DNA from: a virus
Taxonomy: Duplodnaviria; Heunggongvirae; Uroviricota; Caudoviricetes
Virus record (IMG/VR): IMGVR_UViG_2695420739_000021
DNA: 17,601 bases
Direction: 5' to 3' (one strand)
Of this stretch, positions 1 through 15,319 are shown piece by piece. The notes beneath the pieces were generated by a model. The model saw nothing but the letters and a program-made list of their open reading frames with translations. It was not told where the DNA came from and searched no databases. Made by a program: the position numbers and the translations under genes. Each line of letters begins with the position of its first letter. Position 1 is the stretch's first letter.

Positions 1-99
1 ATGGCGGCAGCACAACCGCTGGTATTTGATGCAGAACTGGACACCGTGCGTGAGCGTCTTGGTAGCGTAAAGGGCGGCGATGTGGAGTTCGGCAATTAA
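1..99 (+). CDS. 3' end of an upstream host gene (partial; product unknown)
   Basis: Open frame from window start to TAA at 97-99; lies outside the repeated unit; followed by hairpin terminators. Product not recognised. Confidence 0.3.
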   Translation: MAAAQPLVFDAELDTVRERLGSVKGGDVEFGN

Positions 100-296
100 C
101 AGCCGCAACAGCGTGAACACTGATGCGGGAGCTGGCTTTGAGCAAACATTGACGGGCCTGACGCTCGGTATCGATAGTCGTTTCTCCTGTGAAGAAAGCA
201 GCACAACTCAGGCGGGTGTAGTCTGGACGTTCTGATAACAGAAAATAAACAGGCCGTGATGTGTCGCGGTCTGTTTATCGAATTAAATGCAGATAT

Positions 297-328: not shown

Positions 329-342
329 GGGATTTTTGGTCC

Positions 343-375
343 ACGAGAGTAGTTTAATTGAGTATGTAACTACAT
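343..375. other. Candidate att core region (attL side), with inverted repeat GTAGTT / AACTAC
   Basis: Identity between the two unit starts begins at 342/9051. Inverted repeat 349-354 / 368-373 resembles core-type integrase half-sites. Exact crossover cannot be fixed without attB. Confidence 0.3.
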
Positions 376-410
376 GATTTTAAATAGTATGCTTGATTCA
401 ACTTTTAAAC

Positions 411-434
411 CGTATAACTAAACGTATAACTAAA
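411..434. repeat. Tandem 12-bp direct repeats CGTATAACTAAA x2 (putative integrase arm-type sites, P' arm)
   Basis: Perfect tandem copies at 411-422 and 423-434; same motif occurs four times upstream of int (8858-8912). Confidence 0.45.
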
Positions 435-660
435 ATCATTTGCTGAAAAAGTGTACAATTTAAATGCGAGTTTTCCTGTGGTAAAAGCTCCAACCGTAAC
501 GATGTTCGTTATGGTTGCCTTGATGGTCTGCGTGGTCATTATGACCATTCAGGATTTGAAGGGTGACGCTTCCGACTTCCTCAAATTGAGGTTTCCGAAA
601 ATATCAGCGGGTTAGCGATTAATCTGACCATTAATTAAACTGCGAAAATTTCGTAATTAT

Positions 661-686
661 CCCGATATGGGGATCACCATATCGGG
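661..686 (-). terminator. Hairpin downstream of capsid-like gene (putative operon terminator)
   Basis: Perfect 10-bp inverted repeat CCCGATATGG / CCATATCGGG with 6-nt spacer, just 3' of the gene ending at 703; followed by AU-rich rather than a clean U-tract. Confidence 0.35.
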
Positions 687-702
687 ATTGATGCCGGAAA
701 AA

Positions 703-1629
703 TCAGCTTTTCGCCAGAACGGTGACGGCCTTATCGAGTTTTTGCCATCCGCAATAGGTGATTGCCCTGAACGCTGTAGCGTCATTCTGGAAAAGGCTAA
801 CCGTCCCTGATTCGGTTTTTATTACCGCCTCATCAGTTGGGGTTATAACCGTGGCTTCAACGTTAATAATCAGCTTTTGAGCGTCTATCAGCATCATGCG
901 ATCCGCCTGTTCGCTCACAATTACCGGTATTCTCAAAAGCTCTATCTGCCAGAACTCAGCATCAGTAAGCTGTAAGGCGTTTTCTACGGGCAAGATTAGC
1001 GACGACGTGGCAAGCGTGTTACCGTTCGCTATGTGCTTTTTGAAAAGCTCTATGAAGTTTTCGGCCTCATCAGCACCATTAAGCACGCCCTCAGGGGATA
1101 CGCCCGCCACCTCCTGGTCACTGGAAAGAAATTTTTTATCTATTTCTTTCACCGATTCCGATGTGATCAAGTCTCTGATCGCTGAATTGGTACCAGGGGT
1201 GCTAAATTTGATTAGCTCGTTATTCAGCATCACAATAGCGCCAAGTTTGCACAGTTTTAGCGCACTTTCGTTTACTTCTCCCTCTTTGACAGGGATTTCT
1301 TCGGCTTCTTTAAGCCATTTACTACCCTTGCCTGATATTGACTGCAATTTTGCGCCAAACGGAAGATTCAGCGCGCTGCTGATTAGCTTGCCTGGTACAG
1401 ACTGCGAAAAAATATACTCGCCAAGCTCTCTTACTATCGGCTCTGCCACCAGCGACGGCATATTATCCGTAGTCATTCCGGCAACAATGGATTTTTCAAG
1501 AAATTTCGATACTGCCGGATCATTTTTTTTCGTCATTTCAATTGCGTCTGCATGGCTGAATTTACACGATGTAAGCACGCTGGCGGCGCGAACTGCCGAC
1601 ACGCCTTTCATGTTTTTAGAAATCATCAT
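703..1629 (-). CDS. HK97-fold major capsid protein-like (308 aa, no delta/scaffold domain)
   Basis: ATGATG start with AGGAGG about 8 nt upstream. Segment KLGAIVMLNNELIKF...EVAGVSPEGVLNGA resembles the conserved HK97-family capsid motif. Last gene of the terS operon. Assignment is from memory, not a search. Confidence 0.5.
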   Translation of the reverse strand: MMISKNMKGVSAVRAASVLTSCKFSHADAIEMTKKNDPAVSKFLEKSIVAGMTTDNMPSLVAEPIVRELGEYIFSQSVPGKLISSALNLPFGAKLQSISGKGSKWLKEAEEIPVKEGEVNESALKLCKLGAIVMLNNELIKFSTPGTNSAIRDLITSESVKEIDKKFLSSDQEVAGVSPEGVLNGADEAENFIELFKKHIANGNTLATSSLILPVENALQLTDAEFWQIELLRIPVIVSEQADRMMLIDAQKLIINVEATVITPTDEAVIKTESGTVSLFQNDATAFRAITYCGWQKLDKAVTVLAKS

Positions 1630-1777
1630 CTTCTTCCTCCTGGTAACATGGGGTTAGGGTTTCGTGAAAATATGGCATCAGAACAGCGGCAGCCTGTAAC
1701 CGTATTTCGGTTGGCTGCTGCTTGTCGTTCATGATTTCCGTGAGTACATCAATAGGGTCTGTGATGTATTCGCTCAT
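1616..1777 (-). CDS. Hypothetical small protein (53 aa) with acidic C-terminal tail
   Basis: ATG at 1777, 11 nt after terS stop; MSEYITDPIDVLTEIMNDKQQPTEIRLQAAAVLMPYFHETLTPCYQEEEDDDF; overlaps capsid start by 14 nt. Not in ORF track (under length cutoff). Confidence 0.35.
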   Translation of the reverse strand: MSEYITDPIDVLTEIMNDKQQPTEIRLQAAAVLMPYFHETLTPCYQEEEDDDF

Positions 1778-1788
1778 AGTTCGCTACC

Positions 1789-2277
1789 TCAGTGTTTTAA
1801 GCCAGTTGGTGGCTTAGGGATGGGGAACCGATTTGAGGAGACATTAGCGGCATTGAGTTTTTTAACCTCTTTTTTCCCAATGCTGCCGATCTTGCGGTGG
1901 GTGAACTGGGCCAGCTTAAACGCGGCATCTAAAGCCAGTTTTGGATCTGTGTCCATGTTGTCAATCAGTATCCTGCCCATTGCTTTGATGGGGTCGGGTA
2001 GGCCGTTATCCATCATCTCAATGGTGTTAATTGATGCCCGTTCCGGTGTAACTTTTTCGGTAACTTTCTTTGTAACTTTTTTCGGTTTTGTAACCTGAAA
2101 AGTTACATCAGAAGTTACAGCCTTAAGATACTTTTTCACCTCCGGATCATTGGATAGCTGCCAGCCTTTAACCCTTGCAGTCTTTTCGCTGTATCCCGCA
2201 TGTATCGCGGCTTCCGTTGGATTTGTGCCCTTTGATAACGCATCAGCAAACCGCTTTTTTTTGGTCGTTAATGCCAT
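1789..2277 (-). CDS. terS: Terminase small subunit (N-terminal HTH type)
   Basis: Internal ATG (MALTTKKKRFADALSKGTNPTEAAIHAGYSEKTARVKGWQL...) matches the TerS DNA-binding N-terminus. The track's longer 208-aa start is an unlikely N-terminal extension. Confidence 0.7.
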   Translation of the reverse strand: MALTTKKKRFADALSKGTNPTEAAIHAGYSEKTARVKGWQLSNDPEVKKYLKAVTSDVTFQVTKPKKVTKKVTEKVTPERASINTIEMMDNGLPDPIKAMGRILIDNMDTDPKLALDAAFKLAQFTHRKIGSIGKKEVKKLNAANVSSNRFPIPKPPTGLKH

Positions 2278-2323
2278 GCAAAAACCTCGTTTTGAGGGGG
2301 TGTAACTTTTCGTGTAACTTTTT
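2048..2323. repeat. Cluster of GTAAC(T)TTT repeats inside and just upstream of terS (candidate pac site)
   Basis: Direct copies at about 2048, 2060, 2072, 2090, 2302, 2313 and inverted AGTTAC at about 2101 and 2113. Two copies lie upstream of the terS start codon, so not purely a coding-repeat effect. Confidence 0.35.
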
Positions 2324-2404
2324 TGAAAAGCAAAATTTTCTATGAATGAGACTGGGGGCGGTGTCCAGGGCGATCGACTTTCCGGCCGGAACACTCCCCC
2401 CCTG

Positions 2405-2566
2405 TCATTGCTCACCGAGTAACGAGATCAGGCCTTCAACTTCATCACTCAGCTTGTTTATTCGTGTCTCAAGCTCTGCGATCTTTTCCATCAATGGCGC
2501 TATGGTGTCTCTTGTTTCCTCGCCAATGGCTTTAATGATGCTTGCCTCGCGTTCTGTGATAGCCAT
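2405..2566 (-). CDS. Hypothetical small coiled-coil protein (53 aa)
   Basis: ATG 3 nt after the stop of the preceding 64-aa gene; MAITEREASIIKAIGEETRDTIAPLMEKIAELETRINKLSDEVEGLISLLGEQ. Not in ORF track. Confidence 0.3.
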   Translation of the reverse strand: MAITEREASIIKAIGEETRDTIAPLMEKIAELETRINKLSDEVEGLISLLGEQ

Positions 2567-2569
2567 TGT

Positions 2570-2764
2570 TTACGCCTCACTTGTTGCAATGCCCAGGCGT
2601 TCGCGTAACAGTACGCGCGCAAGATGCCCTATTGTTGGTGTTGCCGCCCTGCCGTAGATACCTGATTCATTCATCCGGCGCACAATATCGAACTGCAACT
2701 TTTTAAGCTCGTTAAGGATTTCATGATCAATCATCACGGTAGCGCTTTGCTTTATCTCTTCCAC
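2570..2764 (-). CDS. Hypothetical small protein (64 aa), first gene of packaging operon; possible DNA-binding
   Basis: GTG start at 2764 with AGGAG 8 nt upstream; sits after an AT-rich promoter-like region and the terminator of the preceding unit. Confidence 0.4.
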   Translation of the reverse strand: MEEIKQSATVMIDHEILNELKKLQFDIVRRMNESGIYGRAATPTIGHLARVLLRERLGIATSEA

Positions 2765-2852
2765 TTTGTTTTCTCCTGATACTTATCATTGCATAACCAG
2801 TATTTTCGATAGATTATCATTAATTAACCATATTTGAAGATATATGAGATCG

Positions 2853-2876
2853 AAAAAAAGCCGGATTGCTCCGGCT
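2853..2876 (-). terminator. Intrinsic terminator after the 81-aa gene
   Basis: Minus-strand hairpin GCCGGAGCAATCCGGC followed by U7 (plus strand: A-run 2853-2859, hairpin 2860-2875). Confidence 0.6.
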
Positions 2877-2894
2877 ATGTGCTCACTTCTTCGG

Positions 2895-3140
2895 TTATTC
2901 TCCAGCGCTTTTAACGTTGATGGTTGTTACCTGTTCCGCTTCGGCAATCTCCCGTTCTGTCAGCGTGGCAAAGTTTGCCGCCGCTGTGGTCATGAATGCG
3001 CTTATCAGTTCGGGATGCTCCTTCGCGTATCCTTCCCCCGCGTGGCGGTCTATCGTTCTGATTGCCACCTTTAAGGAAAGCTCTGTCATGTCTAACGCTT
3101 TATATTTTGGCGCTGTCTTATCTCTGGTTTTTCTGTTCAT
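2895..3140 (-). CDS. Hypothetical protein (81 aa), origin-adjacent
   Basis: ATG at 3140 directly abutting the iteron array; followed by the intrinsic terminator. Confidence 0.35.
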   Translation of the reverse strand: MNRKTRDKTAPKYKALDMTELSLKVAIRTIDRHAGEGYAKEHPELISAFMTTAAANFATLTEREIAEAEQVTTINVKSAGE

Positions 3141-3345
3141 TCCCCACTACTCCCCACTTTTGCTCCCCACTTTTTGAAATTACCCACCGTCTCCCCACCT
3201 CTTTTTTTTGTGATTCTAACGTTATGTTTTTCAATATGTTTTTTACTCCCCACTTTTTTGGGTATATACAGGTGGGAAAGTGGGTAATTATGTTTCAATT
3301 TTGTTAAATTCCCCACTCCCCCCACTTTTACTCCCCACTTTTTAC
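3141..3345. repeat. Replication origin candidate: iterons (C)TCCCCACTTTT plus AT-rich segment
   Basis: At least 8 direct copies (3141, 3150, 3163, 3191, 3245, 3310, 3319, 3331), 2 inverted (GTGGGAAAGTGGGTA at 3272-3286), and AT-rich stretch 3201-3245. Directly 3' of the rep gene. Confidence 0.6.
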
Positions 3346-4675
3346 AGCGGGCGCACGTCATCACCGTCAATAACGATTACGCCATCATTTTCCAGCTTGT
3401 ACAGCCAGCGCCGGAAGTGCTTCATCTCATACCCCAGCTTTTTCATATCGTCGCGGAGAAGGGCGATAGTGCACGCCTCCCCGTGTGCTGTTCGTGTTCT
3501 GATGCACTGCCATAGCGCGGCGTGATTCTCCGTCTTGTTCCCTGCCTCCTCGATGCGCTCCAGTTCAACGGGAGGGCGCGGCTTATCCACCACCACCAGC
3601 GACGTGATTAACTCCCCGTCAGCGTCGGTAAAAAGCTCCACCACGCGTAAGTCATATGCTGCTTCTTTGAGTTCCTCCGCGTCCTTCATTTTGGTACATG
3701 AGATAACCAGCGCTTCGCTGCCTGCGTCCTCCCTGCGTATCCGGTATTCGGCGTCCAGTGATGCACGAAATGCACTGGAACCACGCGCCCCCTTTGTTTC
3801 ATCCTTGCCGGAATGGTGAACCACCAGCACCGTTGCCCCTGTGCGCCGTTTCAGTTCGTCACACCCACGGATAAACGCCCCCATATCACGGGAATCATTT
3901 TCATCATTGCCGCCAAAGCAGCGCGCCAGCGTATCCAGAATAATCATTCGAACCGGTTTACCCGTTTCCCGTTCCACCTGACGGGCAGCGATAACCATTT
4001 CACGTGCACAACCTCCCAGGCTTTTACACGACGCGGAACACCTATACCGCCTTCACCAACCACATAGAGAACCGCACCATGTGCAACCCTGCGGCCTCCC
4101 CACTGGCGACCAGTGGCAACATGGCACGCCCACGATCCGGCAAGGAATGATTTATAGGACCCGCTAGCCCCGTATATGCTGCATAGCGATACCGCCGGAA
4201 TAATCCCCTTAACCACGTAATCCAGTTGCGTGTCGTATCCGGTAGATCCAACGCTCATCGGTAGCGTGGTTTTTCGCTGGTGGTTTTTTTCTTCCGCCGG
4301 CTCTTTCCCGCGCACCCGTTCCAGGTATTCGCGCCAGTTCTCCCGCATATGGCTGTGCATCCCTTCGGGGTAATAATTCGCATCAGTTACACCCGCCGCC
4401 GCCAGCTTGTGCGCAATGGCATTAATATTTGATGGCCTGATGTGGCCTGCCTTGTACAGCCGGACACAATAGCGCCCCTCGTCGATGATTCTCAGGTCTG
4501 CCAGTTCATCCAGTTGATCATCAGCCAGCACAACGGGAGGCACATTATCGCCAGCCAGTCGCCCGTCCTGTTCCTGCCACTGTTTCGCATGTGCCCAGGC
4601 ATCACTACCCGCAAAAATAATGACTTCGGTCATCTTGTCGTAAGGCTGTTTTTTTAAGTTCGGTGCGCTTTTCAT
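3342..4675 (-). pseudogene. Disrupted replication protein (AAA_25/RepA-like), split by 67-bp deletion
   Basis: Copy 2 has one 466-aa ORF; copy 1 is split into 3944..4675 (N-terminal, Walker A GASGSYKSF, frameshifted tail) and 3342..3998 (C-terminal, Walker B MIILD). Deletion at about 3999-4001. Confidence 0.7.
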
Positions 4676-4971
4676 TTCTTGCCCCTGAATCCGTTAATCA
4701 TGGTTTTCAGCTTCTGGATGTTTGCCCGTGCCCTGGCGTTGCTGGTGGGCACGTTATGCGGCGCGGTCTGTACCAGAGAAAAATCACGCCGGAACTGATA
4801 AACAGGCATCACGCAATCATATTCGTAACCTTCACGGCGGTAAGTTACGCACCGTCCCGCCACGCCCTTAATCATTACCGTGCCGCCGTACTGGTCGCGG
4901 TAAATATCACCGCGCGTAAATTTAGGGTGAGTGTTGCCACTGGCAGTTAAGCCAGAATATTTAAGTTTCAT
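4672..4971 (-). CDS. Hypothetical protein (99 aa), translationally coupled to rep
   Basis: ATG at 4971 with GGAG upstream; stop overlaps rep start (ATGA). Confidence 0.4.
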   Translation of the reverse strand: MKLKYSGLTASGNTHPKFTRGDIYRDQYGGTVMIKGVAGRCVTYRREGYEYDCVMPVYQFRRDFSLVQTAPHNVPTSNARARANIQKLKTMINGFRGKK

Positions 4972-4976
4972 TATTT

Positions 4977-5210
4977 TTATTCTCCGGTGTGCTGTTCGTT
5001 ATATCTGTCGTGCAATGTCTCTATTTCCTGCAACTCATTTATTACAGGCTCAAGAAGCGTTATTAATGCCGTGACAATTCTTGATTTTTGTTTGTCGCGT
5101 TCATTGTCGCCAAGTGTTTCAAGCCATATGCGCAATATTTCGTACATACCTTCAGCGTAAGCAAGGGCACTAAATGCGCGGTCTATTGTTTCGTGGTAAA
5201 TATCACGCAT
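4977..5210 (-). CDS. Small acidic helical protein (77 aa)
   Basis: ATG at 5210; net negative charge; overlaps stop of the upstream gene (TAATATG). Confidence 0.4.
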   Translation of the reverse strand: MRDIYHETIDRAFSALAYAEGMYEILRIWLETLGDNERDKQKSRIVTALITLLEPVINELQEIETLHDRYNEQHTGE

Positions 5211-5211
5211 A

Positions 5212-5433
5212 TTAATCCCCGTCCGTTGTTTTTCTTAAAACAGCTTCTGTCACGAAATCAGCATAGTTAGCGGCAATATCAAGAATATTTAGCCCTGTAT
5301 CTCTGTGCTCATCAGTGCAAAGAAAGAAAAAAGCCACCCGCATAATTTCAGATATTGACGAAAGCGCATCAGCCGCATCATCAGGAACGCCGGAAAATTC
5401 TTGTTTCAGGGAATTAAAACGATCATCACGCAT
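5212..5433 (-). CDS. Small acidic protein (73 aa), paralog of the next gene (PDDAADAL motif)
   Basis: Start MRDDRF with a G8 run as ribosome-binding site; overlaps the upstream gene (ATGCGTGA). Confidence 0.4.
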   Translation of the reverse strand: MRDDRFNSLKQEFSGVPDDAADALSSISEIMRVAFFFLCTDEHRDTGLNILDIAANYADFVTEAVLRKTTDGD

Positions 5434-5647
5434 AACCCCCCCCATTTTCACAATCAGCAACAAGAATATTTTTAGCGTCATTCAGCGACCGCGTTGCGAT
5501 GTATCGGATACATTCCAGGGCGAACTGTGTCCGGTCTTTCTGTTCTTCTCCCTGCGCAAGCTCTGCAGTGCATTCAATATCGATAAGCGCGTGCATCAGC
5601 GTAGTGAGCGCGTCGGCTGCTGCGTCCGGTGTGGTTTTATTGCACAT
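5426..5647 (-). CDS. Small acidic protein (73 aa), paralog (TPDAAADAL motif)
   Basis: Start MCNKTT with AGGAGG 7 nt upstream; overlaps the Icd-like stop. Confidence 0.4.
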   Translation of the reverse strand: MCNKTTPDAAADALTTLMHALIDIECTAELAQGEEQKDRTQFALECIRYIATRSLNDAKNILVADCENGGGYA

Positions 5648-6197
5648 GGCACACCTCCTGACGAATACGGGCGGCGAATACAGCAACACAACCGGACGGG
5701 CAACGGCTACGCGCTTCGCGTTCCGTCCAGGCGGTTACGTGGATGATTTGATGTTCTGACGCGCCAAAGATGATAAAGCGCCAGAGAAAGGCGGTTTGAG
5801 AATGTACAAGGGTAGGGATAGTAGCCATGTTGGCAGCCTCCTCAGTGTGGTTAAGATAACCGCCACCGGAAACGCCAATTTCGCTGGTGGCGGACTGTAC
5901 AGGGTTGGCGTAACCGGACACTGAAGAAACCGGCGCGGATTGCTCCGCCCCCGTACAGCCCACCATTGATAAGGTGTGACTATGCGGCACAAAAAAACAC
6001 GCGGGGCGCGTGTTATGCGCTTCAGTTTTGCCCAGGACGCCAATCCCGGCACCCGTTTTATGAGGTGCGCGGGAATCATAGCTATTTTCGACACTGGCGA
6101 TCAACTGGTTTTTTTCTCCGATATTCAGGGCCAGAAAACGCCACACAAAGGCCGTTTGTGTGTGTACAAGGTGTGGTATATGATTTACGGCAACCAT
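5637..6197 (-). CDS. Icd-like (Ash-family) protein, tandem two-domain reading frame; internal start at 5828 gives a 63-aa Icd-like product
   Basis: Two paralogous segments share HLVH(T/S)QTAF(V/L)WRF; distal one ends ...TEREARSR...VFAARIRQEV, like P4-type Icd-like proteins. No stop between them. GAGGAGG precedes the internal ATG at 5828; GGAG precedes ATG at 6197. Confidence 0.45.
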   Translation of the reverse strand: MVAVNHIPHLVHTQTAFVWRFLALNIGEKNQLIASVENSYDSRAPHKTGAGIGVLGKTEAHNTRPACFFVPHSHTLSMVGCTGAEQSAPVSSVSGYANPVQSATSEIGVSGGGYLNHTEEAANMATIPTLVHSQTAFLWRFIIFGASEHQIIHVTAWTEREARSRCPSGCVAVFAARIRQEVCHVQ

Positions 6198-6285
6198 AAC
6201 GGCTCCTAGTTTACGTTGTTGGTTAGACGCCCCGTATGTGTTCCCAGCACTGCGGGGCGTTGATTTTTGTGTAATGGCAAGTACA

Positions 6286-6329
6286 ATGGTAATTACCATG
6301 TAGGTATAGTAATGAAGGGTAATTACCAT
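6286..6329. promoter_or_regulatory. Paired palindromic operators in divergent promoter region
   Basis: Perfect 14-bp palindrome ATGGTAATTACCAT (6286-6299) and 12-bp GGTAATTACCAT (6318-6329), centres 30 bp apart; second overlaps the RHH start codon. Possible TATAGT -10 at 6305-6310. Confidence 0.5.
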
Positions 6330-6501
6330 GTCAACACCATTAGAAAAACGTTCGCCTCCATACCAAATGCGATTACCGGAAGACTTCAGAGCGCAGCTAG
6401 AAGAAGCAGCTAAGGCCGATGGCGACACATCTTTAGCCACTTGGATTAAACGCGTTCTCCGCAAAGAATTACAGCAACGCGGCATAGAACCCAAAGGATA
6501 A
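6328..6501 (+). CDS. Ribbon-helix-helix (Arc/CopG-like) DNA-binding protein, 57 aa; putative element repressor
   Basis: MSTPLEKRSPPYQMRLPEDFRAQLEEAAKADGDTSLATWIKRVLRKELQQRGIEPKG fits the Arc-type RHH pattern. Divergent from the Icd/rep operon. Not in ORF track. Confidence 0.5.
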   Translation: MSTPLEKRSPPYQMRLPEDFRAQLEEAAKADGDTSLATWIKRVLRKELQQRGIEPKG

Positions 6502-6543
6502 AAACTATCAGCGCCGTGGTGTGAGGTATTACGGCGCATTGCT

Positions 6544-6732
6544 ATGCAGGACAACACAATGACCGATAAAGAATTGACCAAAACATTATCACCGGCACGG
6601 AAAAGACGGCGCAGAAAGATAGAGCATGAATCAGAAAGATTCGCGCCATGTGCTTTTGCCCTTGAGCAATTCCTTAAAGAGTACAGGGAAAAGCGCTCAT
6701 TGCAGGTATGGCAACGAACTGAACCAGACTGA
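6544..6732 (+). CDS. Hypothetical basic small protein (62 aa)
   Basis: ORF between RHH gene and the plus-strand terminator; weak ribosome-binding site; arginine-rich stretch KRRRRK. Confidence 0.25.
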   Translation: MQDNTMTDKELTKTLSPARKRRRRKIEHESERFAPCAFALEQFLKEYREKRSLQVWQRTEPD

Positions 6733-6827
6733 TTGCATTGCCCACCAGCCTGATAGCGGCTATCATCCCCGTGCTTATGTTTGGGATCACATACACATAA
6801 GGCGCAGCGGGTTAATTGTTCAGAAAG

Positions 6828-6854
6828 GCGGCTCCATATCGGGGCCGCTTTTTT
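6828..6854 (+). terminator. Intrinsic terminator at convergence of RHH unit and alpA
   Basis: Stem GCGGCTCC / GGGGCCGC (one G-U pair), 5-nt loop, then T6. Confidence 0.55.
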
Positions 6855-6880
6855 CGTGTTTGTCATATCTGTGATACCCG

Positions 6881-7087
6881 TTAAGCAGCCGTTCCGCGTG
6901 CTTCCTCTTCGCGTTCTTTCTGCCAGGACAACACATCATCCTCATACCATCCGCGACGGCGTAAACCAACGCGAAAACCCTGCGGAAATTCTCCGGCGTT
7001 GATCATGCTTTGCAGCGTGCTGTCTGCCTTGATGTGGATAATTTTTTTTACTTCCTGGCGAAAGATAATTTTTCTGATTGCTTCCAT
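6881..7087 (-). CDS. alpA: AlpA-family regulator / excisionase-like protein (68 aa)
   Basis: ...STLQSMINAGEFPQGFRVGLRRRGWYEDDVLSWQ matches the AlpA-family HTH pattern. Confidence 0.75.
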   Translation of the reverse strand: MEAIRKIIFRQEVKKIIHIKADSTLQSMINAGEFPQGFRVGLRRRGWYEDDVLSWQKEREEEARGTAA

Positions 7088-7103
7088 CGTGATTTACCTT
7101 GTG

Positions 7104-7191
7104 AATCCGGTGTATTCCGGTGACAAATACGGTAAATCATCGGATATGGGTAAAAACAGTTCCCACCGTTTTTAAACGGTATACACCGTTT
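7104..7191. promoter_or_regulatory. alpA upstream control region: TCCGGTG repeats and ACCGTTT/AAACGGT inverted repeats
   Basis: ATCCGGTG (7104-7111) and TTCCGGTGA (7114-7122) spaced 10 bp; inverted repeats at 7165-7180 and 7174-7191. The TCCGGTG motif recurs next to the att core. Confidence 0.35.
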
Positions 7192-7220
7192 TTTATATTG
7201 ATGATTTGAAATGGAATTAT

Positions 7221-7243
7221 AAAAAAAGCGGCATTTCTGCCGC
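7221..7243 (-). terminator. Intrinsic terminator of the int / 83-aa unit
   Basis: Minus-strand hairpin GCGGCAGAAATGCCGC followed by U7. Confidence 0.6.
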
Positions 7244-7254
7244 TTCCAGGATTG

Positions 7255-7506
7255 TTACCGCCATTTTTTGGGCCTGCCTCCGATCTTCATAGATGCCGGA
7301 CGTACGACCTTATCAATACTTACCGCCAGATTTCTGGAAGCGCCACGGGATACCAGAAAATCTACTACCTGTTTTTTTGATGGGGCCGTCGTTCTGTCCT
7401 CCGGATCGTAGGTTGACCAAAATTCATGCTGAACCATCAGGGCCAGTTGCAGCCCGTCGCAATTGCATCTGATATTTTTTTGCATCTTAACGGTTTCATG
7501 TTTCAC
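7255..7506 (-). CDS. Hypothetical int-linked small protein (83 aa)
   Basis: ORF downstream of int on the same strand, before the terminator; GTG start at 7506 (alternative ATG at M8); TATAAT motif about 28 nt upstream. Confidence 0.4.
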   Translation of the reverse strand: MKHETVKMQKNIRCNCDGLQLALMVQHEFWSTYDPEDRTTAPSKKQVVDFLVSRGASRNLAVSIDKVVRPASMKIGGRPKKWR

Positions 7507-7583
7507 GGCCTTGTCGTTAAATTTGATGCAATTATACGACGGTTTTACATGGTTTTCGTAGTTTTTACTGGTTTTCTGTACAG

Positions 7584-8825
7584 CTACACGGCTCGGATAC
7601 CCCTTTTACCACTGGCGAGGGTTACGCCCGTCGCCGCAGCCTCGACAAATTCGCCCCACCAGCGCATCAGCACGATGCGTTTTTCTATGTAGTTGCTCCG
7701 GTTGTATGCCCGTCTAACTTCGTTGGTGTCGACGTGGGCAAGTGCCGCCTCTATTACGTCCGGCTCGAATCCTTCCTCGTTCGCTGCTGTGCTGAATATG
7801 GCGCGTAATCCATGAGACACCAGCACGCCAGCGAATCCCATACGCCGCAATGCTGCGTTAGCTGTCTGGCTGTTCATCGGCTGCTGTGGGTCTTTCAGAC
7901 TTGGGAAAACGTAATTGCGGTGGTGGCTGATTGGTTTCATGGCCTCCAGCACCGCCATAGCCTGACCGGAAAGCGGGATAACGTGATCCCTGCGCATCTT
8001 CATGCGTCCGGCAGGTATCGTCCATTGCTTCGCGTCCAGGTTGATTTCATCCCACCGCGTTGATGACGCTTCGGCGGGACGGGTTACGGTCAGTAACTGC
8101 CATTCAATCAGTAATCTGGTCTGCCGTTCTGTTGCCGATACTGATAAAGCCTGCATAAGCTCGGGCAGCTGTTCGGGGCGGATTGTTGGCATATGTTTTT
8201 TTACAGGTGAGGGAAACGCCTTACGCACATTCATAGCCGGATTGGCATCAATCAGCCCACTGTTGGCGGCGTAATCCATTACCTCATTAACGCGCTGTAA
8301 AACCCGCTTGAGTGTTTCCAGGTTGCCGCGCTCCTTGATGGGGGTAAGCACTTCAACGAACCTTCGGGCGGTGAGGGTATCTATTGGCGTGTTGCCGATG
8401 AACGGGAATACATATTTATCCAGCGAACGCCAGATGTCTTTAATCGTGTTGGGGGCCAGATTCTGGCTGATTTTCACCTGGTACCATGCCGCCGCCACAT
8501 TTTCGAACGTGTTCCCTTGTCTTCGGGCCTCTGTCTCTCTTTTTTGCCTCTCGTGGTCCTGCGGGTCAGTTCCGGCACTGATTAACGTCCTGTACTCGCT
8601 ACGGCGTTTTCTGGCATCAGCCAGGGAAACATCTTCAAGCGATCCAAAACTCAGCAATATTCTTTTTTTGTCCGATGGTCGGTAGTAGGAAAATCTCCAG
8701 AGTTTTGATCCAGACGGTTTGACCAGGAGAAAAAGCCCTCCGCCGTCCTGCAGGGTGTACTCCTTTTGCGCTGGTCTGGCTGCTTTGATCTGCACTGTGG
8801 TTAATGGGTGTGTTTTTCTCGCCAT
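7584..8825 (-). CDS. int: Tyrosine integrase, P4-type (413 aa)
   Basis: N-terminus MARKTHPLTTVQIKAARPAQKEYTLQDGGGLFLLVKPSGSKLWRFSYY is typical of P4-like integrases; ATG at 8825 preferred over the upstream GTG. Confidence 0.85.
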   Translation of the reverse strand: MARKTHPLTTVQIKAARPAQKEYTLQDGGGLFLLVKPSGSKLWRFSYYRPSDKKRILLSFGSLEDVSLADARKRRSEYRTLISAGTDPQDHERQKRETEARRQGNTFENVAAAWYQVKISQNLAPNTIKDIWRSLDKYVFPFIGNTPIDTLTARRFVEVLTPIKERGNLETLKRVLQRVNEVMDYAANSGLIDANPAMNVRKAFPSPVKKHMPTIRPEQLPELMQALSVSATERQTRLLIEWQLLTVTRPAEASSTRWDEINLDAKQWTIPAGRMKMRRDHVIPLSGQAMAVLEAMKPISHHRNYVFPSLKDPQQPMNSQTANAALRRMGFAGVLVSHGLRAIFSTAANEEGFEPDVIEAALAHVDTNEVRRAYNRSNYIEKRIVLMRWWGEFVEAAATGVTLASGKRGIRAV

Positions 8826-8857
8826 ATGTCTATGATTCCACACGAAAAAACAGGGTT

Positions 8858-8912
8858 TTAGTTATACGGCTTTAGTTATACGCCAGCCCGTATAACTAAA
8901 CGTATAACTAAA
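8858..8912. repeat. Four copies of CGTATAACTAAA (two inverted, two direct): putative arm-type sites, P arm
   Basis: TTTAGTTATACG at about 8858 and 8871; CGTATAACTAAA at about 8890 and 8901. Same motif as 411-434. Confidence 0.45.
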
Positions 8913-8923
8913 AAATCCGGCTG

Positions 8924-9037
8924 ATAGCTTATAAATCCGGTGATGTTCGGTGACTAAAAAACATAAAAAAACCCGCCAATCAAGTGATTAGCGGGTTATC
9001 CCTGTCTTATCCGGTGCTTTCCGGTGATATCCGGTGG
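8924..9037. repeat. TCCGGTG direct repeats, three phased at 10 bp, next to att core (candidate directionality-factor sites)
   Basis: Copies at about 8924 (variant), 8935, 8946 (variant), 9009, 9019, 9029; the last three are exactly 10 bp apart. Confidence 0.4.
8962..8997 (-). terminator. Intrinsic terminator between the copy-2 capsid operon and int
   Basis: Minus-strand stem AACCCGC / GCGGGTT with 14-nt loop followed by U7. Confidence 0.5.
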
Positions 9038-9119
9038 GCGATTTGGTCGGCACGAGAGTAGTTTAATTGAGTATGTAACTACATGATTTTAAATAGTATG
9101 CTTGATTCAACTTTTAAAC

Positions 9120-9143
9120 CGTATAACTAAACGTATAACTAAA
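9120..9143. repeat. Tandem CGTATAACTAAA x2 (P' arm of junction attP)
   Basis: Copy-2 equivalent of 411-434; with 8858-9037 and the core near 9051 this forms a full attP-like site. Confidence 0.45.
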
Positions 9144-9411
9144 ATCATTTGCTGAAAAAGTGTACAATTTAAATGCGAGTTTTCCTGTGGTAAAAGCTCC
9201 AACCGTAACGATGTTCGTTATGGTTGCCTTGATGGTCTGCGTGGTCATTATGACCATTCAGGATTTGAAGGGTGACGCTTCCGACTTCCTCAAATTGAGG
9301 TTTCCGAAAATATCAGCGGGTTAGCGATTAATCTGACCATTAATTAAACTGCGAAAATTTCGTAATTATCCCGATATGGGGATCACCATATCGGGATTGA
9401 TGCCGGAAAAA

Positions 9412-10338
9412 TCAGCTTTTCGCCAGAACGGTGACGGCCTTATCGAGTTTTTGCCATCCGCAATAGGTGATTGCCCTGAACGCTGTAGCGTCATTCTGGA
9501 AAAGGCTAACCGTCCCTGATTCGGTTTTTATTACCGCCTCATCAGTTGGGGTTATAACCGTGGCTTCAACGTTAATAATCAGCTTTTGAGCGTCTATCAG
9601 CATCATGCGATCCGCCTGTTCGCTCACAATTACCGGTATTCTCAAAAGCTCTATCTGCCAGAACTCAGCATCAGTAAGCTGTAAGGCGTTTTCTACGGGC
9701 AAGATTAGCGACGACGTGGCAAGCGTGTTACCGTTCGCTATGTGCTTTTTGAAAAGCTCTATGAAGTTTTCGGCCTCATCAGCACCATTAAGCACGCCCT
9801 CAGGGGATACGCCCGCCACCTCCTGGTCACTGGAAAGAAATTTTTTATCTATTTCTTTCACCGATTCCGATGTGATCAAGTCTCTGATCGCTGAATTGGT
9901 ACCAGGGGTGCTAAATTTGATTAGCTCGTTATTCAGCATCACAATAGCGCCAAGTTTGCACAGTTTTAGCGCACTTTCGTTTACTTCTCCCTCTTTGACA
10001 GGGATTTCTTCGGCTTCTTTAAGCCATTTACTACCCTTGCCTGATATTGACTGCAATTTTGCGCCAAACGGAAGATTCAGCGCGCTGCTGATTAGCTTGC
10101 CTGGTACAGACTGCGAAAAAATATACTCGCCAAGCTCTCTTACTATCGGCTCTGCCACCAGCGACGGCATATTATCCGTAGTCATTCCGGCAACAATGGA
10201 TTTTTCAAGAAATTTCGATACTGCCGGATCATTTTTTTTCGTCATTTCAATTGCGTCTGCATGGCTGAATTTACACGATGTAAGCACGCTGGCGGCGCGA
10301 ACTGCCGACACGCCTTTCATGTTTTTAGAAATCATCAT
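9412..10338 (-). CDS. HK97-fold major capsid protein-like (copy 2)
   Basis: Identical translation to 703..1629. Confidence 0.5.
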   Translation of the reverse strand: MMISKNMKGVSAVRAASVLTSCKFSHADAIEMTKKNDPAVSKFLEKSIVAGMTTDNMPSLVAEPIVRELGEYIFSQSVPGKLISSALNLPFGAKLQSISGKGSKWLKEAEEIPVKEGEVNESALKLCKLGAIVMLNNELIKFSTPGTNSAIRDLITSESVKEIDKKFLSSDQEVAGVSPEGVLNGADEAENFIELFKKHIANGNTLATSSLILPVENALQLTDAEFWQIELLRIPVIVSEQADRMMLIDAQKLIINVEATVITPTDEAVIKTESGTVSLFQNDATAFRAITYCGWQKLDKAVTVLAKS

Positions 10339-10486
10339 CTTCTTCCTCCTGGTAACATGGGGTTAGGGTTTCGTGAAAATATGGCATCAGAACAGCGGCA
10401 GCCTGTAACCGTATTTCGGTTGGCTGCTGCTTGTCGTTCATGATTTCCGTGAGTACATCAATAGGGTCTGTGATGTATTCGCTCAT
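10325..10486 (-). CDS. Hypothetical small protein with acidic tail (copy 2)
   Basis: Copy of 1616..1777 at +8709. Confidence 0.35.
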   Translation of the reverse strand: MSEYITDPIDVLTEIMNDKQQPTEIRLQAAAVLMPYFHETLTPCYQEEEDDDF

Positions 10487-10497
10487 AGTTCGCTACC

Positions 10498-10986
10498 TCA
10501 GTGTTTTAAGCCAGTTGGTGGCTTAGGGATGGGGAACCGATTTGAGGAGACATTAGCGGCATTGAGTTTTTTAACCTCTTTTTTCCCAATGCTGCCGATC
10601 TTGCGGTGGGTGAACTGGGCCAGCTTAAACGCGGCATCTAAAGCCAGTTTTGGATCTGTGTCCATGTTGTCAATCAGTATCCTGCCCATTGCTTTGATGG
10701 GGTCGGGTAGGCCGTTATCCATCATCTCAATGGTGTTAATTGATGCCCGTTCCGGTGTAACTTTTTCGGTAACTTTCTTTGTAACTTTTTTCGGTTTTGT
10801 AACCTGAAAAGTTACATCAGAAGTTACAGCCTTAAGATACTTTTTCACCTCCGGATCATTGGATAGCTGCCAGCCTTTAACCCTTGCAGTCTTTTCGCTG
10901 TATCCCGCATGTATCGCGGCTTCCGTTGGATTTGTGCCCTTTGATAACGCATCAGCAAACCGCTTTTTTTTGGTCGTTAATGCCAT
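10498..10986 (-). CDS. terS: Terminase small subunit (copy 2)
   Basis: Identical to 1789..2277; ATG confirmed at 10984-10986 (plus-strand CAT). Confidence 0.7.
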   Translation of the reverse strand: MALTTKKKRFADALSKGTNPTEAAIHAGYSEKTARVKGWQLSNDPEVKKYLKAVTSDVTFQVTKPKKVTKKVTEKVTPERASINTIEMMDNGLPDPIKAMGRILIDNMDTDPKLALDAAFKLAQFTHRKIGSIGKKEVKKLNAANVSSNRFPIPKPPTGLKH

Positions 10987-11113
10987 GCAAAAACCTCGTT
11001 TTGAGGGGGTGTAACTTTTCGTGTAACTTTTTTGAAAAGCAAAATTTTCTATGAATGAGACTGGGGGCGGTGTCCAGGGCGATCGACTTTCCGGCCGGAA
11101 CACTCCCCCCCTG

Positions 11114-11275
11114 TCATTGCTCACCGAGTAACGAGATCAGGCCTTCAACTTCATCACTCAGCTTGTTTATTCGTGTCTCAAGCTCTGCGATCTTTTCCAT
11201 CAATGGCGCTATGGTGTCTCTTGTTTCCTCGCCAATGGCTTTAATGATGCTTGCCTCGCGTTCTGTGATAGCCAT
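11114..11275 (-). CDS. Hypothetical coiled-coil protein, 53 aa (copy 2)
   Basis: Copy of 2405..2566. Confidence 0.3.
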   Translation of the reverse strand: MAITEREASIIKAIGEETRDTIAPLMEKIAELETRINKLSDEVEGLISLLGEQ

Positions 11276-11278
11276 TGT

Positions 11279-11473
11279 TTACGCCTCACTTGTTGCAATG
11301 CCCAGGCGTTCGCGTAACAGTACGCGCGCAAGATGCCCTATTGTTGGTGTTGCCGCCCTGCCGTAGATACCTGATTCATTCATCCGGCGCACAATATCGA
11401 ACTGCAACTTTTTAAGCTCGTTAAGGATTTCATGATCAATCATCACGGTAGCGCTTTGCTTTATCTCTTCCAC
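11279..11473 (-). CDS. Hypothetical small protein, 64 aa (copy 2)
   Basis: Identical translation to 2570..2764. Confidence 0.4.
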   Translation of the reverse strand: MEEIKQSATVMIDHEILNELKKLQFDIVRRMNESGIYGRAATPTIGHLARVLLRERLGIATSEA

Positions 11474-11849: not shown

Positions 11850-12054
11850 TCCCCACTACTCCCCACTTTTGCTCCCCACTTTTTGAAATTACCCACCGTC
11901 TCCCCACCTCTTTTTTTTGTGATTCTAACGTTATGTTTTTCAATATGTTTTTTACTCCCCACTTTTTTGGGTATATACAGGTGGGAAAGTGGGTAATTAT
12001 GTTTCAATTTTGTTAAATTCCCCACTCCCCCCACTTTTACTCCCCACTTTTTAC
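11850..12054. repeat. Replication origin iterons (copy 2)
   Basis: Same TCCCCACTTTT iteron array as 3141..3345. Confidence 0.6.
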
Positions 12055-13451
12055 AGCGGGCGCACGTCATCACCGTCAATAACGATTACGCCATCATTTT
12101 CCAGCTTGTACAGCCAGCGCCGGAAGTGCTTCATCTCATACCCCAGCTTTTTCATATCGTCGCGGAGAAGGGCGATAGTGCACGCCTCCCCGTGTGCTGT
12201 TCGTGTTCTGATGCACTGCCATAGCGCGGCGTGATTCTCCGTCTTGTTCCCTGCCTCCTCGATGCGCTCCAGTTCAACGGGAGGGCGCGGCTTATCCACC
12301 ACCACCAGCGACGTGATTAACTCCCCGTCAGCGTCGGTAAAAAGCTCCACCACGCGTAAGTCATATGCTGCTTCTTTGAGTTCCTCCGCGTCCTTCATTT
12401 TGGTACATGAGATAACCAGCGCTTCGCTGCCTGCGTCCTCCCTGCGTATCCGGTATTCGGCGTCCAGTGATGCACGAAATGCACTGGAACCACGCGCCCC
12501 CTTTGTTTCATCCTTGCCGGAATGGTGAACCACCAGCACCGTTGCCCCTGTGCGCCGTTTCAGTTCGTCACACCCACGGATAAACGCCCCCATATCACGG
12601 GAATCATTTTCATCATTGCCGCCAAAGCAGCGCGCCAGCGTATCCAGAATAATCATTCGAACCGGTTTACCCGTTTCCCGTTCCACCTGACGGGCAGCGA
12701 TAACCATTTCCTCAACATCAAGCGGGGCAGCCGGAAAGATGGGACGGTTTACCAGATACAGATTTTTCACCTGCTCACCGTGCACAACCTCCCAGGCTTT
12801 TACACGACGCGGAACGCCGATACCGCCTTCACCAACCACATAGAGAACAGCGCCATGCGCCACCCTGCGGCCTCCCCACTGGCGGCCCGTGGAAACGTGA
12901 CACGCCCACGAACCCGCAAGGAACGATTTATATGAACCGCTCGCCCCGTATATGCTGCACAGCGATACCGCCGGAATAATCCCCTTAACCACGTAATCAA
13001 GTTGTGTGTCGTATCCGGCAGATCCCACGCTCATTGGTAGCGTGGTTTTTCGCTGGTGGTGTTTTTCTTCCCCTGGCTTTTTCCCCCGCTCCCGTTCCAG
13101 ATATTCGCGCCAGTTCTCCCGCTTCTGGCTGTGCATCCCTTCGGGGTAATAATTCGCATCAGTTACACCCGCCGCCGCCAGCTTGTGCGCAATGGCATTA
13201 ATATTTGATGGCCTGATGTGGCCTGCCTTGTACAGCCGGACACAATAGCGCCCCTCGTCGATGATTCTCAGGTCTGCCAGTTCATCCAGTTGATCATCAG
13301 CCAGCACAACGGGAGGCACATTATCGCCAGCCAGTCGCCCGTCCTGTTCCTGCCACTGTTTCGCATGTGCCCAGGCATCACTACCCGCAAAAATAATGAC
13401 TTCGGTCATCTTGTCGTAAGGCTGTTTTTTTAAGTTCGGTGCGCTTTTCAT
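12051..13451 (-). CDS. Replication protein, AAA_25/RepA-DnaB-like ATPase with C-terminal winged-helix region (466 aa, intact)
   Basis: Single ORF with Walker A (GASGSYKSF), Walker B (VRMIILDTLARCFGG), VLVVHHSGKDETKGARGSSA motif and basic C-terminal region; ATG at 13451; origin immediately 3'. Confidence 0.75.
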   Translation of the reverse strand: MKSAPNLKKQPYDKMTEVIIFAGSDAWAHAKQWQEQDGRLAGDNVPPVVLADDQLDELADLRIIDEGRYCVRLYKAGHIRPSNINAIAHKLAAAGVTDANYYPEGMHSQKRENWREYLERERGKKPGEEKHHQRKTTLPMSVGSAGYDTQLDYVVKGIIPAVSLCSIYGASGSYKSFLAGSWACHVSTGRQWGGRRVAHGAVLYVVGEGGIGVPRRVKAWEVVHGEQVKNLYLVNRPIFPAAPLDVEEMVIAARQVERETGKPVRMIILDTLARCFGGNDENDSRDMGAFIRGCDELKRRTGATVLVVHHSGKDETKGARGSSAFRASLDAEYRIRREDAGSEALVISCTKMKDAEELKEAAYDLRVVELFTDADGELITSLVVVDKPRPPVELERIEEAGNKTENHAALWQCIRTRTAHGEACTIALLRDDMKKLGYEMKHFRRWLYKLENDGVIVIDGDDVRPL

Positions 13452-14209: not shown

Positions 14210-14423
14210 AACCCCCCCCATTTTCACAATCAGCAACAAGAATATTTTTAGCGTCATTCAGCGACCGCGTTGCGATGTATCGGATACATTCCAGGGCGAA
14301 CTGTGTCCGGTCTTTCTGTTCTTCTCCCTGCGCAAGCTCTGCAGTGCATTCAATATCGATAAGCGCGTGCATCAGCGTAGTGAGCGCGTCGGCTGCTGCG
14401 TCCGGTGTGGTTTTATTGCACAT
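14202..14423 (-). CDS. Small acidic protein, 73 aa (copy 2)
   Basis: Copy of 5426..5647. Confidence 0.4.
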   Translation of the reverse strand: MCNKTTPDAAADALTTLMHALIDIECTAELAQGEEQKDRTQFALECIRYIATRSLNDAKNILVADCENGGGYA

Positions 14424-14973: not shown

Positions 14974-15061
14974 AACGGCTCCTAGTTTACGTTGTTGGTT
15001 AGACGCCCCGTATGTGTTCCCAGCACTGCGGGGCGTTGATTTTTGTGTAATGGCAAGTACA

Positions 15062-15105
15062 ATGGTAATTACCATGTAGGTATAGTAATGAAGGGTAATT
15101 ACCAT
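15062..15105. promoter_or_regulatory. Paired palindromic operators (copy 2)
   Basis: Copy of 6286..6329. Confidence 0.5.
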
Positions 15106-15277: not shown

Positions 15278-15319
15278 AAACTATCAGCGCCGTGGTGTGA
15301 GGTATTACGGCGCATTGCT

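Follow-up and report, generated by a model that had tools for sequence, protein, structure and literature searches.

The 17,601-nt viral sequence held as IMG/VR record IMGVR_UViG_2695420739_000021 (the whole stretch analysed, here called the window) carries an 8.7-kb island of Escherichia coli, and positions 703–2764 on its minus strand are almost certainly the packaging cassette of a phage-inducible chromosomal island (PICI), with a small terminase subunit (TerS) and a capsid-protein homolog of the HK97 fold. Our best overall explanation, to which we assign a probability of roughly 0.55, is that the region serves a classical Gram-negative PICI as its late packaging cassette, and that this PICI uses the cos machinery of a helper phage and has a capsid homolog that co-assembles with the capsid protein of that helper.

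Gene content and conservation of the cassette

A first-pass annotation of the window had described this region as a TerS gene, a gene for a 308-aa capsid-like protein and three tiny open reading frames (ORFs), with no large terminase (TerL), portal or protease, and that inventory was borne out by the five minus-strand ORFs found here. No ORF in the 8.7-kb unit matched a TerL, portal, protease, connector, tail or lysis family in Pfam or PHROG, and RefSeq annotates none of these in an identical element. The features are given below with the amino-acid identity of each product to its counterpart in L005, a PICI on an 8.4-kb metagenomic contig, and with the ratio of nonsynonymous to synonymous substitution (dN/dS) between the window and a 96%-identical copy, L008; for the shortest genes this ratio rests on small counts.

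2570–2764, minus strand: first cassette gene, 64-aa protein, no family match (47% identity; dN/dS 0.10)
2405–2566, minus strand: 53-aa protein "53a", predicted coiled coil; phrog_1289 "portal protein", E 0.005 (55%; 0.29)
2336–2402, minus strand: putative helper-type cos site (cosN-like), by homology to the prophage HNH–terS intergenic region
2048–2320, minus strand: AAGTTAC array, proposed cosB-like TerS recognition site; seven of the eight copies in the unit
1789–2277, minus strand: terS, 162 aa; PF03592, E 9.7e-11; phrog_641, E 1.4e-43 (57.5%; 0.24)
1616–1777, minus strand: 53-aa protein "53b", acidic C-terminal tail; phrog_641 match (62%; 0.15)
703–1629, minus strand: capsid-protein homolog, 308 aa; PF05065, E 1.1e-6; phrog_617, E 1.4e-10; second copy at 9412–10338 (48%; 0.16)
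2859–2876, minus strand: terminator-like hairpin and T-run from a consensus scan, parting the replication module from the cassette
9412–11473, minus strand: the cassette repeated in full, within tandem PICI copy 2

The L005 PICI holds the five cassette genes in identical order despite a different integrase, Toprim/D5 primase and SSB. In L008, from O157:H7 strain Z1615, the cassette that is 96% identical at the nucleotide level lies between clpS and cspD and is accompanied by a different integrase, att site and primase. These comparisons indicate that the cassette moves as a unit between PICIs with different integrases and replicases. The three tiny ORFs are evidently genuine genes, because their products are 47–62% identical in a PICI of unrelated backbone and their dN/dS values are 0.10–0.29. 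Within the window, aligning the two halves with each other gave 0 mismatches between the cassette copies over 335–4001, with at most one single-base gap whose position in that interval was not located. Word-index homolog searches gave 3–8 close relatives per query, and for relatives in a wider range of taxa a scan of genome contigs and a degenerate DNA pattern were both without match.

The cos core and the proposed recognition repeats

The 128-nt gap between the 53a gene and terS holds a block (2336–2402) that is 78% identical to the region between the HNH endonuclease gene and terS of the Shiga toxin 1 (Stx1) phage Lys8385Vzw and 80–81% identical to that of O157 prophages. Its core, GATCGCCCTGGACACCGCCCCCAGTCTCA...AGAAAA (ATCGCCCyGGACACCGCCCCCnnTCTCA...AGAAAA), was present in 17 of the 17 related PICI loci examined, and it is homologous to that of HNH-dependent, HK97-like 3′-cos lambdoid prophages. 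A published PhageTerm analysis of Lys8385Vzw reported cos packaging with 3′ cohesive ends, and the genome was found to end in CGCCCCCCCT as its cos sequence (PMC7946995). This end falls exactly in the middle of the core common to phage and PICI; directly after it the GenBank record starts. The counterpart of the 10-nt 3′ cohesive end of the helper is CGCCCCCAGT at 2351–2360 of the window, while the 10-mer reads CGCCCCCCGT in most PICI copies and one O157 prophage and CGCCCCCCCT in L005. By a hand count from the alignment the L005 core is about 91% identical to that of the phage, though the proteins are only about 50% identical. A full-text literature search for the core sequence returned no match.

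The seven AAGTTAC copies of the array are arranged as two direct copies upstream of terS and, inside the part of terS that encodes the linker, three direct ones spaced 12 nt apart and a further two that are inverted; the remaining copy lies elsewhere in the unit. Chance would give 0.03 occurrences of the 10-mer AAAGTTACAC in the window, which has 6, and the layout of the array in L005 equals that in the window. Helper prophages instead have five GTTAAC motifs downstream of the core and before terS, where the PICIs have no GTTAAC. In HK97 the TerS site lies 15–29 bp downstream of the cut (PMC11331095), which makes the geometry of the AAGTTAC array relative to the core reasonable. From these patterns we propose that the array is a PICI-specific TerS recognition (cosB-like) site. 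Since the helper cleavage site is kept alongside a TerS and an array of the island's own, we read the island as a cos-type PICI, and cos-type packaging on HNH/HK97-type lambdoid helpers by way of this TerS and array seems quite probable.

The small terminase

TerS starts at 2277, as RefSeq has it, and homologs begin in the same manner (MALTTKKK / MLTNKKK). A 208-aa terS ORF from a GTG at 2415 was rejected as an over-extension, the first 45 codons of which translate the non-coding cos-like site. The protein consists of an N-terminal helix-turn-helix (HTH), a linker of KVT repeats and a C-terminal region conserved with the helper TerS. Overall it is 47% identical to the TerS of Lys8385Vzw, and hand counts from the alignment put the HTH at about 55% and residues 92–135 at about 70% identity, with unrelated linkers. 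A PICI TerS that recognizes other DNA than the helper TerS yet pairs with the same TerL would be expected to show such uneven similarity. The KVT repeats of the linker (KKVTKKVTEKVT in the window, QKVTPKVTPKVT in L005; window 2048–2124) are the translation of the AAGTTAC DNA repeats. As the in-gene AAGTTAC copies encode these repeats, it looks as if a DNA signal within the gene itself dictates what the linker sequence is.

The capsid homolog

The first-pass annotation had taken the 308-aa protein for an HK97-like capsid protein, and both profile and structure searches agreed with it, placing the protein among HK97-fold capsid proteins and not in a non-capsid family. (RefSeq starts it at the second methionine, giving 307 aa.) The Pfam match to PF05065 (Phage_capsid) is above the gathering cut-off, and two PHROG major-head families were matched, the best at 1.4e-10. 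An exhaustive HMMER search across 1.84 billion representative proteins brought up 564 relatives, among them one capsid-only group of 310–330 aa and more distant proteins that are about 450 aa long or are protease–capsid fusions of 630–670 aa. A single-sequence search of PDB was uninformative and a model from a 5-sequence alignment was unusable (mean predicted local distance difference test score, pLDDT, 43.4), while a 33-sequence alignment taken from the representative-library search gave an AlphaFold 2 (AF2) model with a mean pLDDT of 90.9 and a predicted template modelling score (pTM) of 0.87. All 50 of the 50 matches listed by Foldseek against PDB were phage, gene transfer agent or satellite capsid proteins or encapsulins; they include Bxb1, Adephagia, Muddy, 80alpha/SaPI1, HK97, T5, the SaPIbov5 procapsid, the capsid of a capsid-forming PICI (cf-PICI) and encapsulins, with Bxb1, SaPI1/80alpha, HK97 and SaPIbov5 at the top. 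A profile of the protein family likewise matched solely major capsid or head proteins among PDB sequences. The predicted model has the full HK97 fold with N-arm, E-loop, P domain and A domain, and we classify the homolog as an HK97-fold capsid protein of the HK97 gp5 family (PF05065).

The earlier observation that a delta/scaffold domain is missing also stands. From residue 8 the homolog aligns with residues 291–625 of the 645-aa protease–scaffold–capsid fusion of the candidate helper at 22% identity, and with the TIGR01554 profile its residue 97 aligns with profile position 153. It is accordingly without the protease and without the delta/scaffold domain of about 100 aa, and keeps a helical N-terminal stretch of about 45–50 aa that is common to the helper capsid domain. 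The gene is under purifying selection (dN/dS 0.16) and is constantly linked to terS and cos in elements of 8.4–8.8 kb. A relative at 26% identity is encoded by three unannotated Ralstonia "phages" of 12.9–13.4 kb (ON170149, ON170171 and ON170322), and from their size of about 13 kb these records may be virion-sequenced satellites rather than phages.

Candidate helper phages

Among E. coli phages, TerS (47%) and the capsid homolog (23%) both have their closest relatives in a single group of lambdoid prophages, which takes in the Stx1a, Stx2a and Stx2c converting phages, the PPompW prophages, BP-4795, 2851, YYZ-2008, 1717 and Lys8385Vzw. In this group the head module runs in the order HNH endonuclease, terS, HK97-type terL, protease–scaffold–capsid fusion, a 73-aa gene, portal, a 245-aa gene and adaptors; the TerL is of HK97 type (PF03354/PF20441), and the gene upstream of the cos is that for the HNH endonuclease. 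The head module was found in 1,258 of the 5,426 complete E. coli genomes. Strain RM8385, the source of induced Lys8385Vzw, carries a complete PICI at tRNA-Pro and has six places that match the helper terS–terL–capsid segment. Four of the 15 PICI hosts listed were among the best 60 helper matches, each with 5–6 such places. Because the host lineages are related, we regard this co-residence of PICI and helper module as supportive only. Together the helper-type cos core, the TerS homology and the presence of the inducible Lys8385Vzw alongside the PICI in RM8385 are indirect signs that the island may depend on a helper phage for its induction, replication and transfer. In PPompW prophages (LC567818, LC567822 and others) an IS110-family element, ISEc20, lies directly upstream of the cos core, the match starting at query position 26. 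It separates HNH from cos and terS, and may disable these prophages as packaging-competent helpers.

The small proteins and cassette expression

Of the five cassette products 53b is the best conserved. It aligns weakly to the C-terminal helical core of TerS, with matches to positions 89–126 of phrog_641 (E 8.2e-7), to TerS residues 89–129 by hhalign (E 0.034) and to the small terminase 7joq in PDB (E 0.15). Plain BLASTP of 53b against TerS gave no alignment, and the similarity is seen by profile methods only. Over 29 residues the N-terminus of 53a shares 48% identity (E 3e-6) with that of the 245-aa protein whose gene follows the portal gene in the helper; in some phages, going by phrog_2271, this 245-aa protein is fused to the portal. 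These similarities suggest that 53a and 53b are cut-down mimics of helper head proteins, with a role analogous to that of Ppi in SaPIs, the pathogenicity islands of Staphylococcus aureus. In Lys8385Vzw (L002, 4664–6762) the portal gene (454 aa) is followed by the 245-aa ORF with a 4-nt overlap, and that ORF corresponds to the C-terminal part of the 859-position "portal" proteins of phrog_2271 and has a weak CBM_5_12 match. The 64-aa protein had no match in Pfam, PHROGs, NCBIfam or PDB, and an impression that it is ribbon-helix-helix-like was unsupported and was dropped.

The hairpin and T-run at 2859–2876 have equivalents at the same place in L008 and L005, that is, on three PICI backbones. 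No sigma-70-like promoter was found in 335–3400, and expression of the cassette may need antitermination or an activator supplied by the helper.

The island, its tandem copies and chromosomal setting

The window is a piece of E. coli chromosome in which positions 1–334 are the yejO-side flank and the remainder is two tandem copies of the island. Copy 1 occupies 335–9041 (8,707 bp) with every island gene on the minus strand, while copy 2, which begins at 9042 and exceeds copy 1 in length by about 67 bp, is cut short inside the integrase gene by the window end. The features outside the cassette are as follows.

335–9058, minus strand: PICI copy 1 between att repeats (335–349 and 9042–9058)
7584–8843, minus strand: int of copy 1; PF00589, E 5.5e-29; P4-like Arm-DNA-bind_3 type
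6881–7087, minus strand: alpA-like regulator, 68 aa; PF05930, E 0.0028 (below gathering score); PHROG excisionase/transcriptional regulator, 2.5e-6; HTH regulator in RefSeq
4672–4971, minus strand: DUF4222 gene, by family match and RefSeq
3342–4675, minus strand: RepA-type replicase of copy 1, split by a 67-bp deletion
12051–13451, minus strand: RepA/AAA_25 replicase of copy 2, intact at 466 aa; AAA_25, E 2.6e-43; phrog_2850, 1.7e-258

In the direction of transcription the island genes are the integrase, a small hypothetical gene, the AlpA-like HTH gene, Icd/ash-like remnants, DUF4222, the RepA/AAA_25 replicase, a gene for an 81-aa phrog_1231 protein and the packaging cassette. The att repeats match the 3′ end of tRNA-Pro. 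The size, terminal tyrosine integrase, att repeats, AlpA-like regulator, single gene direction, own replicase and capsid/terS pair of the island are those by which Gram-negative PICIs are recognized, the usual size of such elements being about 8–15 kb. A mechanical ORF of 409 aa at 5637–6866 on the minus strand (copy at 14413–15642) falls where RefSeq has two Icd-like pieces and an ash-family pseudogene; two similar motifs within it, HLVHTQTAFVWRF and TLVHSQTAFLWRF, point to Icd-like remnants that were duplicated and not to a genuine long gene.

Between the two copies there are 33 single-nucleotide polymorphisms (SNPs), none of them to the left of 4000, and one indel of 67 bp. Near 4001 of copy 1 the 67-bp deletion breaks the RepA/AAA_25 replicase into ORFs of 218 and 243 aa, so copy 1 would need copy 2 or another element for its replication. 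A circular concatemer or an assembly artefact was ruled out as the source of the repetition, given the yejO-side chromosomal flank at 1–334 and these differences between the copies. The tandem junction (8750–9350) was contiguous in 0 of the 5,426 complete E. coli genomes, which argues that tandem carriage is rare or particular to the source. In 165 complete E. coli genomes (coverage of at least 80%) the island is present singly, with yejO on one side and tRNA-Pro/yejM on the other. The hosts are mainly lineages of Shiga toxin-producing E. coli (STEC), including strain H19, and the cassette is also present in O26:H11 strain 11368. A search of IMG/VR gave no relatives beyond copies that were 94–100% identical. 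On the yejO side, window positions 1–206 are 90% identical to 11015–11234 of the reference genome, and about 630 bp that lie beside the island in the reference are missing; together these indicate that the left junction was remodelled in the source strain.

Comparison with known satellites

One premise of the first-pass annotation did not hold up, namely that classical PICIs carry no capsid protein; nor is the architecture seen here a rare one. SatelliteFinder counts capsid morphogenesis among the five core components of a PICI, the others being integrase, regulator, primase-replicase and small terminase, and lists 375 elements in which none of the five is missing, E. coli accounting for 97% of these (PMC10085698). 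Another survey recorded a capsid gene for 21 of its 29 reference PICIs from Gram-negative hosts (PMC10111431), and EcCICFT073 and PmCI172 both encode capsid homologs, PmCI172 making small capsids (PMC6092414). As a capsid gene is standard in E. coli PICIs, the gene set is not an unusual architecture, and the cassette itself was found in 220 of the 5,426 complete E. coli genomes. The island resembles the proteobacterial PICIs (Fillol-Salom et al. 2018; SatelliteFinder, de Sousa et al. 2023) in its 8.7-kb size, terminal integrase, AlpA-like regulator, own replicase and one-strand genes, and in having a capsid homolog and terS without other structural or lysis genes; there is no difference in gene content. 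It fits the common variant Type B#var03 of SatelliteFinder, in which terS stands before the capsid gene and the replicase goes unrecognized, with RepA/AAA_25 as the replicase here. The cos site and AAGTTAC array of the island are not described in those accounts.

Among experimentally studied satellites, SaPIbov5 shares a helper cos site, a lone HK97-fold homolog that is about 22–24% identical to the helper protein and dependence on an HNH-dependent cos helper (the helper of our island being deduced). The SaPIbov5 protein, Ccm, is 24% identical to the helper capsid protein, sits at pentamers and forces small T=4 isometric heads in a cos, HNH-dependent system (PMC8569155). Ccm has an 87-residue delta domain, which is cleaved off, whereas the island homolog has none; SaPIbov5 is without a TerS and relies on that of the phage, whereas the island encodes its own together with a distinct recognition array; and the host phylum differs. 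Size redirection is known for SaPIbov5 and is a proposal for the island. EcCICFT073 is, like the island, an E. coli PICI with a helper-like cosN, a different cosB, a PICI-encoded specificity factor and a capsid homolog (c1499 in EcCICFT073). Its specificity comes from Rpp binding the phage TerS, in contrast to the complete TerS of the island. No small island protein matched an annotated family or PDB entry named Rpp, and no direct comparison was made with the Rpp sequence. Its helpers are lambda and phi80 with a lambda-type cos, whereas the candidate helpers here are HK97-type 3′-cos phages with HNH. The capsid gene of the EcCICFT073-like HE-PICI 11capE belongs to the lambda gpE family (PMC10111431), and that of the island to the HK97 gp5 family (PF05065).

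Like the cf-PICIs (for example EcCIEDL933), the island has an HK97-family capsid protein and a TerS and probably uses HNH-type cos phages. The cf-PICIs also encode HNH, TerL, portal, protease and head–tail connectors, all absent from the island, and in the absence of TerL, portal, protease and connectors it is not a cf-PICI. Pac-type SaPIs (TerS_S with Ppi and CpmA/B) resemble the island in encoding their own TerS to redirect the helper TerL, and the small operon proteins of the island could correspond to theirs, Ppi as a block on the helper TerS and CpmB as a remodeller of the scaffold; no sequence similarity to Ppi or CpmA/B was detected in the island. These SaPIs package by headful with an alternative scaffold, whereas the island most likely uses cos and its remodelling factor would be the capsid homolog. 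The scanned ORFs gave no Pfam or PHROG match to Sid, Psu, Delta or the P4 alpha protein, and the island is not P4-like.

Our literature searches found no paper on the shared cos core, the AAGTTAC array, a link to Stx-type HK97-headed prophages or the helper-like mini-proteins. A search on PICIs with Stx, helper phage and O26 gave no relevant paper, and no experimental study of this sub-lineage was found. The cos core, the array, the Stx-type helper link and the mini-proteins are refinements within a known kind of PICI.

Proposed mechanism and alternatives

Induction of the helper would lead to excision and replication of the PICI, whose TerS would bind the AAGTTAC array and recruit the helper TerL and HNH. 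These would cut the shared cosN-like core, so that PICI concatemers, and not phage DNA, would enter proheads made by the helper. The capsid homolog would co-assemble with the helper capsid protein in the manner of Ccm, remodelling or shrinking the head, and 53a and 53b would act as competitive mimics of helper head-module proteins. With a full HK97 fold but neither protease nor scaffold, the homolog presumably cannot build a shell alone. The precedents of SaPIbov5 Ccm and PmCI172 lead us to favour co-assembly and head remodelling as its role, by analogy and tentatively, at slightly less than even odds. Co-assembly, capsid-size redirection and a decoy that poisons helper assembly, the three roles put forward in the first-pass annotation, are all plausible, and the first of them is the way in which Ccm acts (PMC8569155).

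Several observations weigh against this account. The capsid homolog is 25–27% identical to capsid proteins of Burkholderia, Moraxella, Ralstonia and Salmonella phages against 22–23% to the candidate helper; being no nearer to the E. coli helper, it represents an old PICI-specific lineage rather than a recent capture from the helper. The likeness of 53a and 53b to helper proteins is weak (3e-6 pairwise for 53a; 8e-7, 0.034 and 0.15 for 53b), and the window cos 10-mer CGCCCCCAGT differs from CGCCCCCCCT of Lys8385Vzw at 2 of 10 positions. The pairing of the PICI with its candidate helper is deduced from sequence, and the co-occurrence of the two was counted among matches listed and is confounded by lineage. 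Deletion of the capsid homolog c1499 affected neither transfer nor interference of EcCICFT073, which uses full-size heads (PMC6092414 for the heads), and six PICI units (52 kb) would fill a head of helper size (50.9 kb), so that size redirection is not required.

The last two points lead to an alternative that we consider possible, if rather unlikely, in which roughly hexameric concatemers are packaged into normal full-size helper heads and the capsid homolog has no effect on head size, being either an interference factor that poisons assembly or a dispensable accessory like c1499. The carriage of EcCICFT073 in phage-size capsids and the lack of a phenotype for the c1499 deletion favour it, as does the agreement of 6 × 8.7 kb (52 kb) with the Lys8385Vzw genome of 50,953 bp and the constancy of the unit at about 8.4–8.8 kb on three unrelated backbones. 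A dN/dS of 0.16 and linkage to terS across PICI backbones nevertheless argue against a dispensable protein, a complete and confidently predicted HK97 domain exceeds the needs of a simple poison, and PmCI172 and SaPIbov5 show that capsid homologs are able to redirect head size. The opposite extreme, in which the homolog forms an entire small satellite-specific shell that borrows portal, protease, TerL, HNH, connectors and tail from the helper, with the tiny proteins as scaffold, would make the island an intermediate between classical and capsid-forming PICIs. We think this improbable: the predicted fold is complete from N-arm and E-loop to P and A domains, 22% identity to the helper capsid protein could disfavour mixed capsomers, and three conserved small proteins stand alongside, one a predicted coiled coil, but the unit has no scaffold/delta domain, protease or portal, SaPIbov5 Ccm alone is unable to form capsids, and the cf-PICIs that do build shells carry a full head gene set.

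Cos packaging itself has a competitor in headful (pac) packaging by the PICI TerS as in the pac-type SaPIs, with the conserved block upstream of terS serving as a regulatory element. The literature describes PICIs that encode a TerS as pac-type, some of the recognition repeats fall within terS, an arrangement often seen for pac sites, and the terminator-like hairpin and lack of a sigma-70 match leave the regulation of the cassette not understood. We nonetheless hold pac packaging to be quite improbable, since the 3′ cos end mapped by experiment in Lys8385Vzw falls within the block, which in prophages lies between HNH and terS; since the helper has a TerL of the HK97 cos type and, next to it, an HNH; and since the core stays about 91% identical where protein identity has dropped to about 50%, as in L005. 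It is very improbable indeed that the cassette has no current function and is what is left, in decay, of the head module of a prophage or cf-PICI; the 67-bp replicase deletion in copy 1 and the Icd/ash pseudogenes do point to decay within the element, but the five cassette ORFs are all intact in 220 complete genomes with dN/dS of 0.10–0.29, and cassette, cos core and repeat array are kept across three PICI backbones. We retain a classical cos-type PICI with a co-assembling capsid homolog as the best explanation.

Meaning for E. coli and its Stx phages

The gene inventory alone matters little, being the textbook set of an E. coli PICI whose exact cassette is annotated in hundreds of genomes. 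What the analysis adds is a concrete natural pair for the capsid-homolog question: a PICI and the inducible Stx1 phage Lys8385Vzw in RM8385, with a mapped cos end and a candidate TerS-binding array, where c1499 is the only E. coli PICI capsid homolog to have been knocked out. The likely helpers include Shiga-toxin-converting phages, and if the satellite interferes with them, this bears on the production and transfer of Stx phages in pathogenic E. coli. In its most far-reaching form, which we judge improbable as a whole, this PICI lineage would be a dedicated parasite of HK97-headed, HNH/cos lambdoid prophages of STEC (the Stx1a, Stx2a and Stx2c phages included), the capsid homolog would build or dominate a small satellite-specific shell although the island brings neither portal nor protease, and the 53-aa proteins, as mimics of the TerS core and of the product encoded after the portal, would sabotage helper packaging. 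If that were true, such islands would reduce Stx-phage yield and the spread of toxin genes in the O26, O111, O103 and O157 outbreak lineages.

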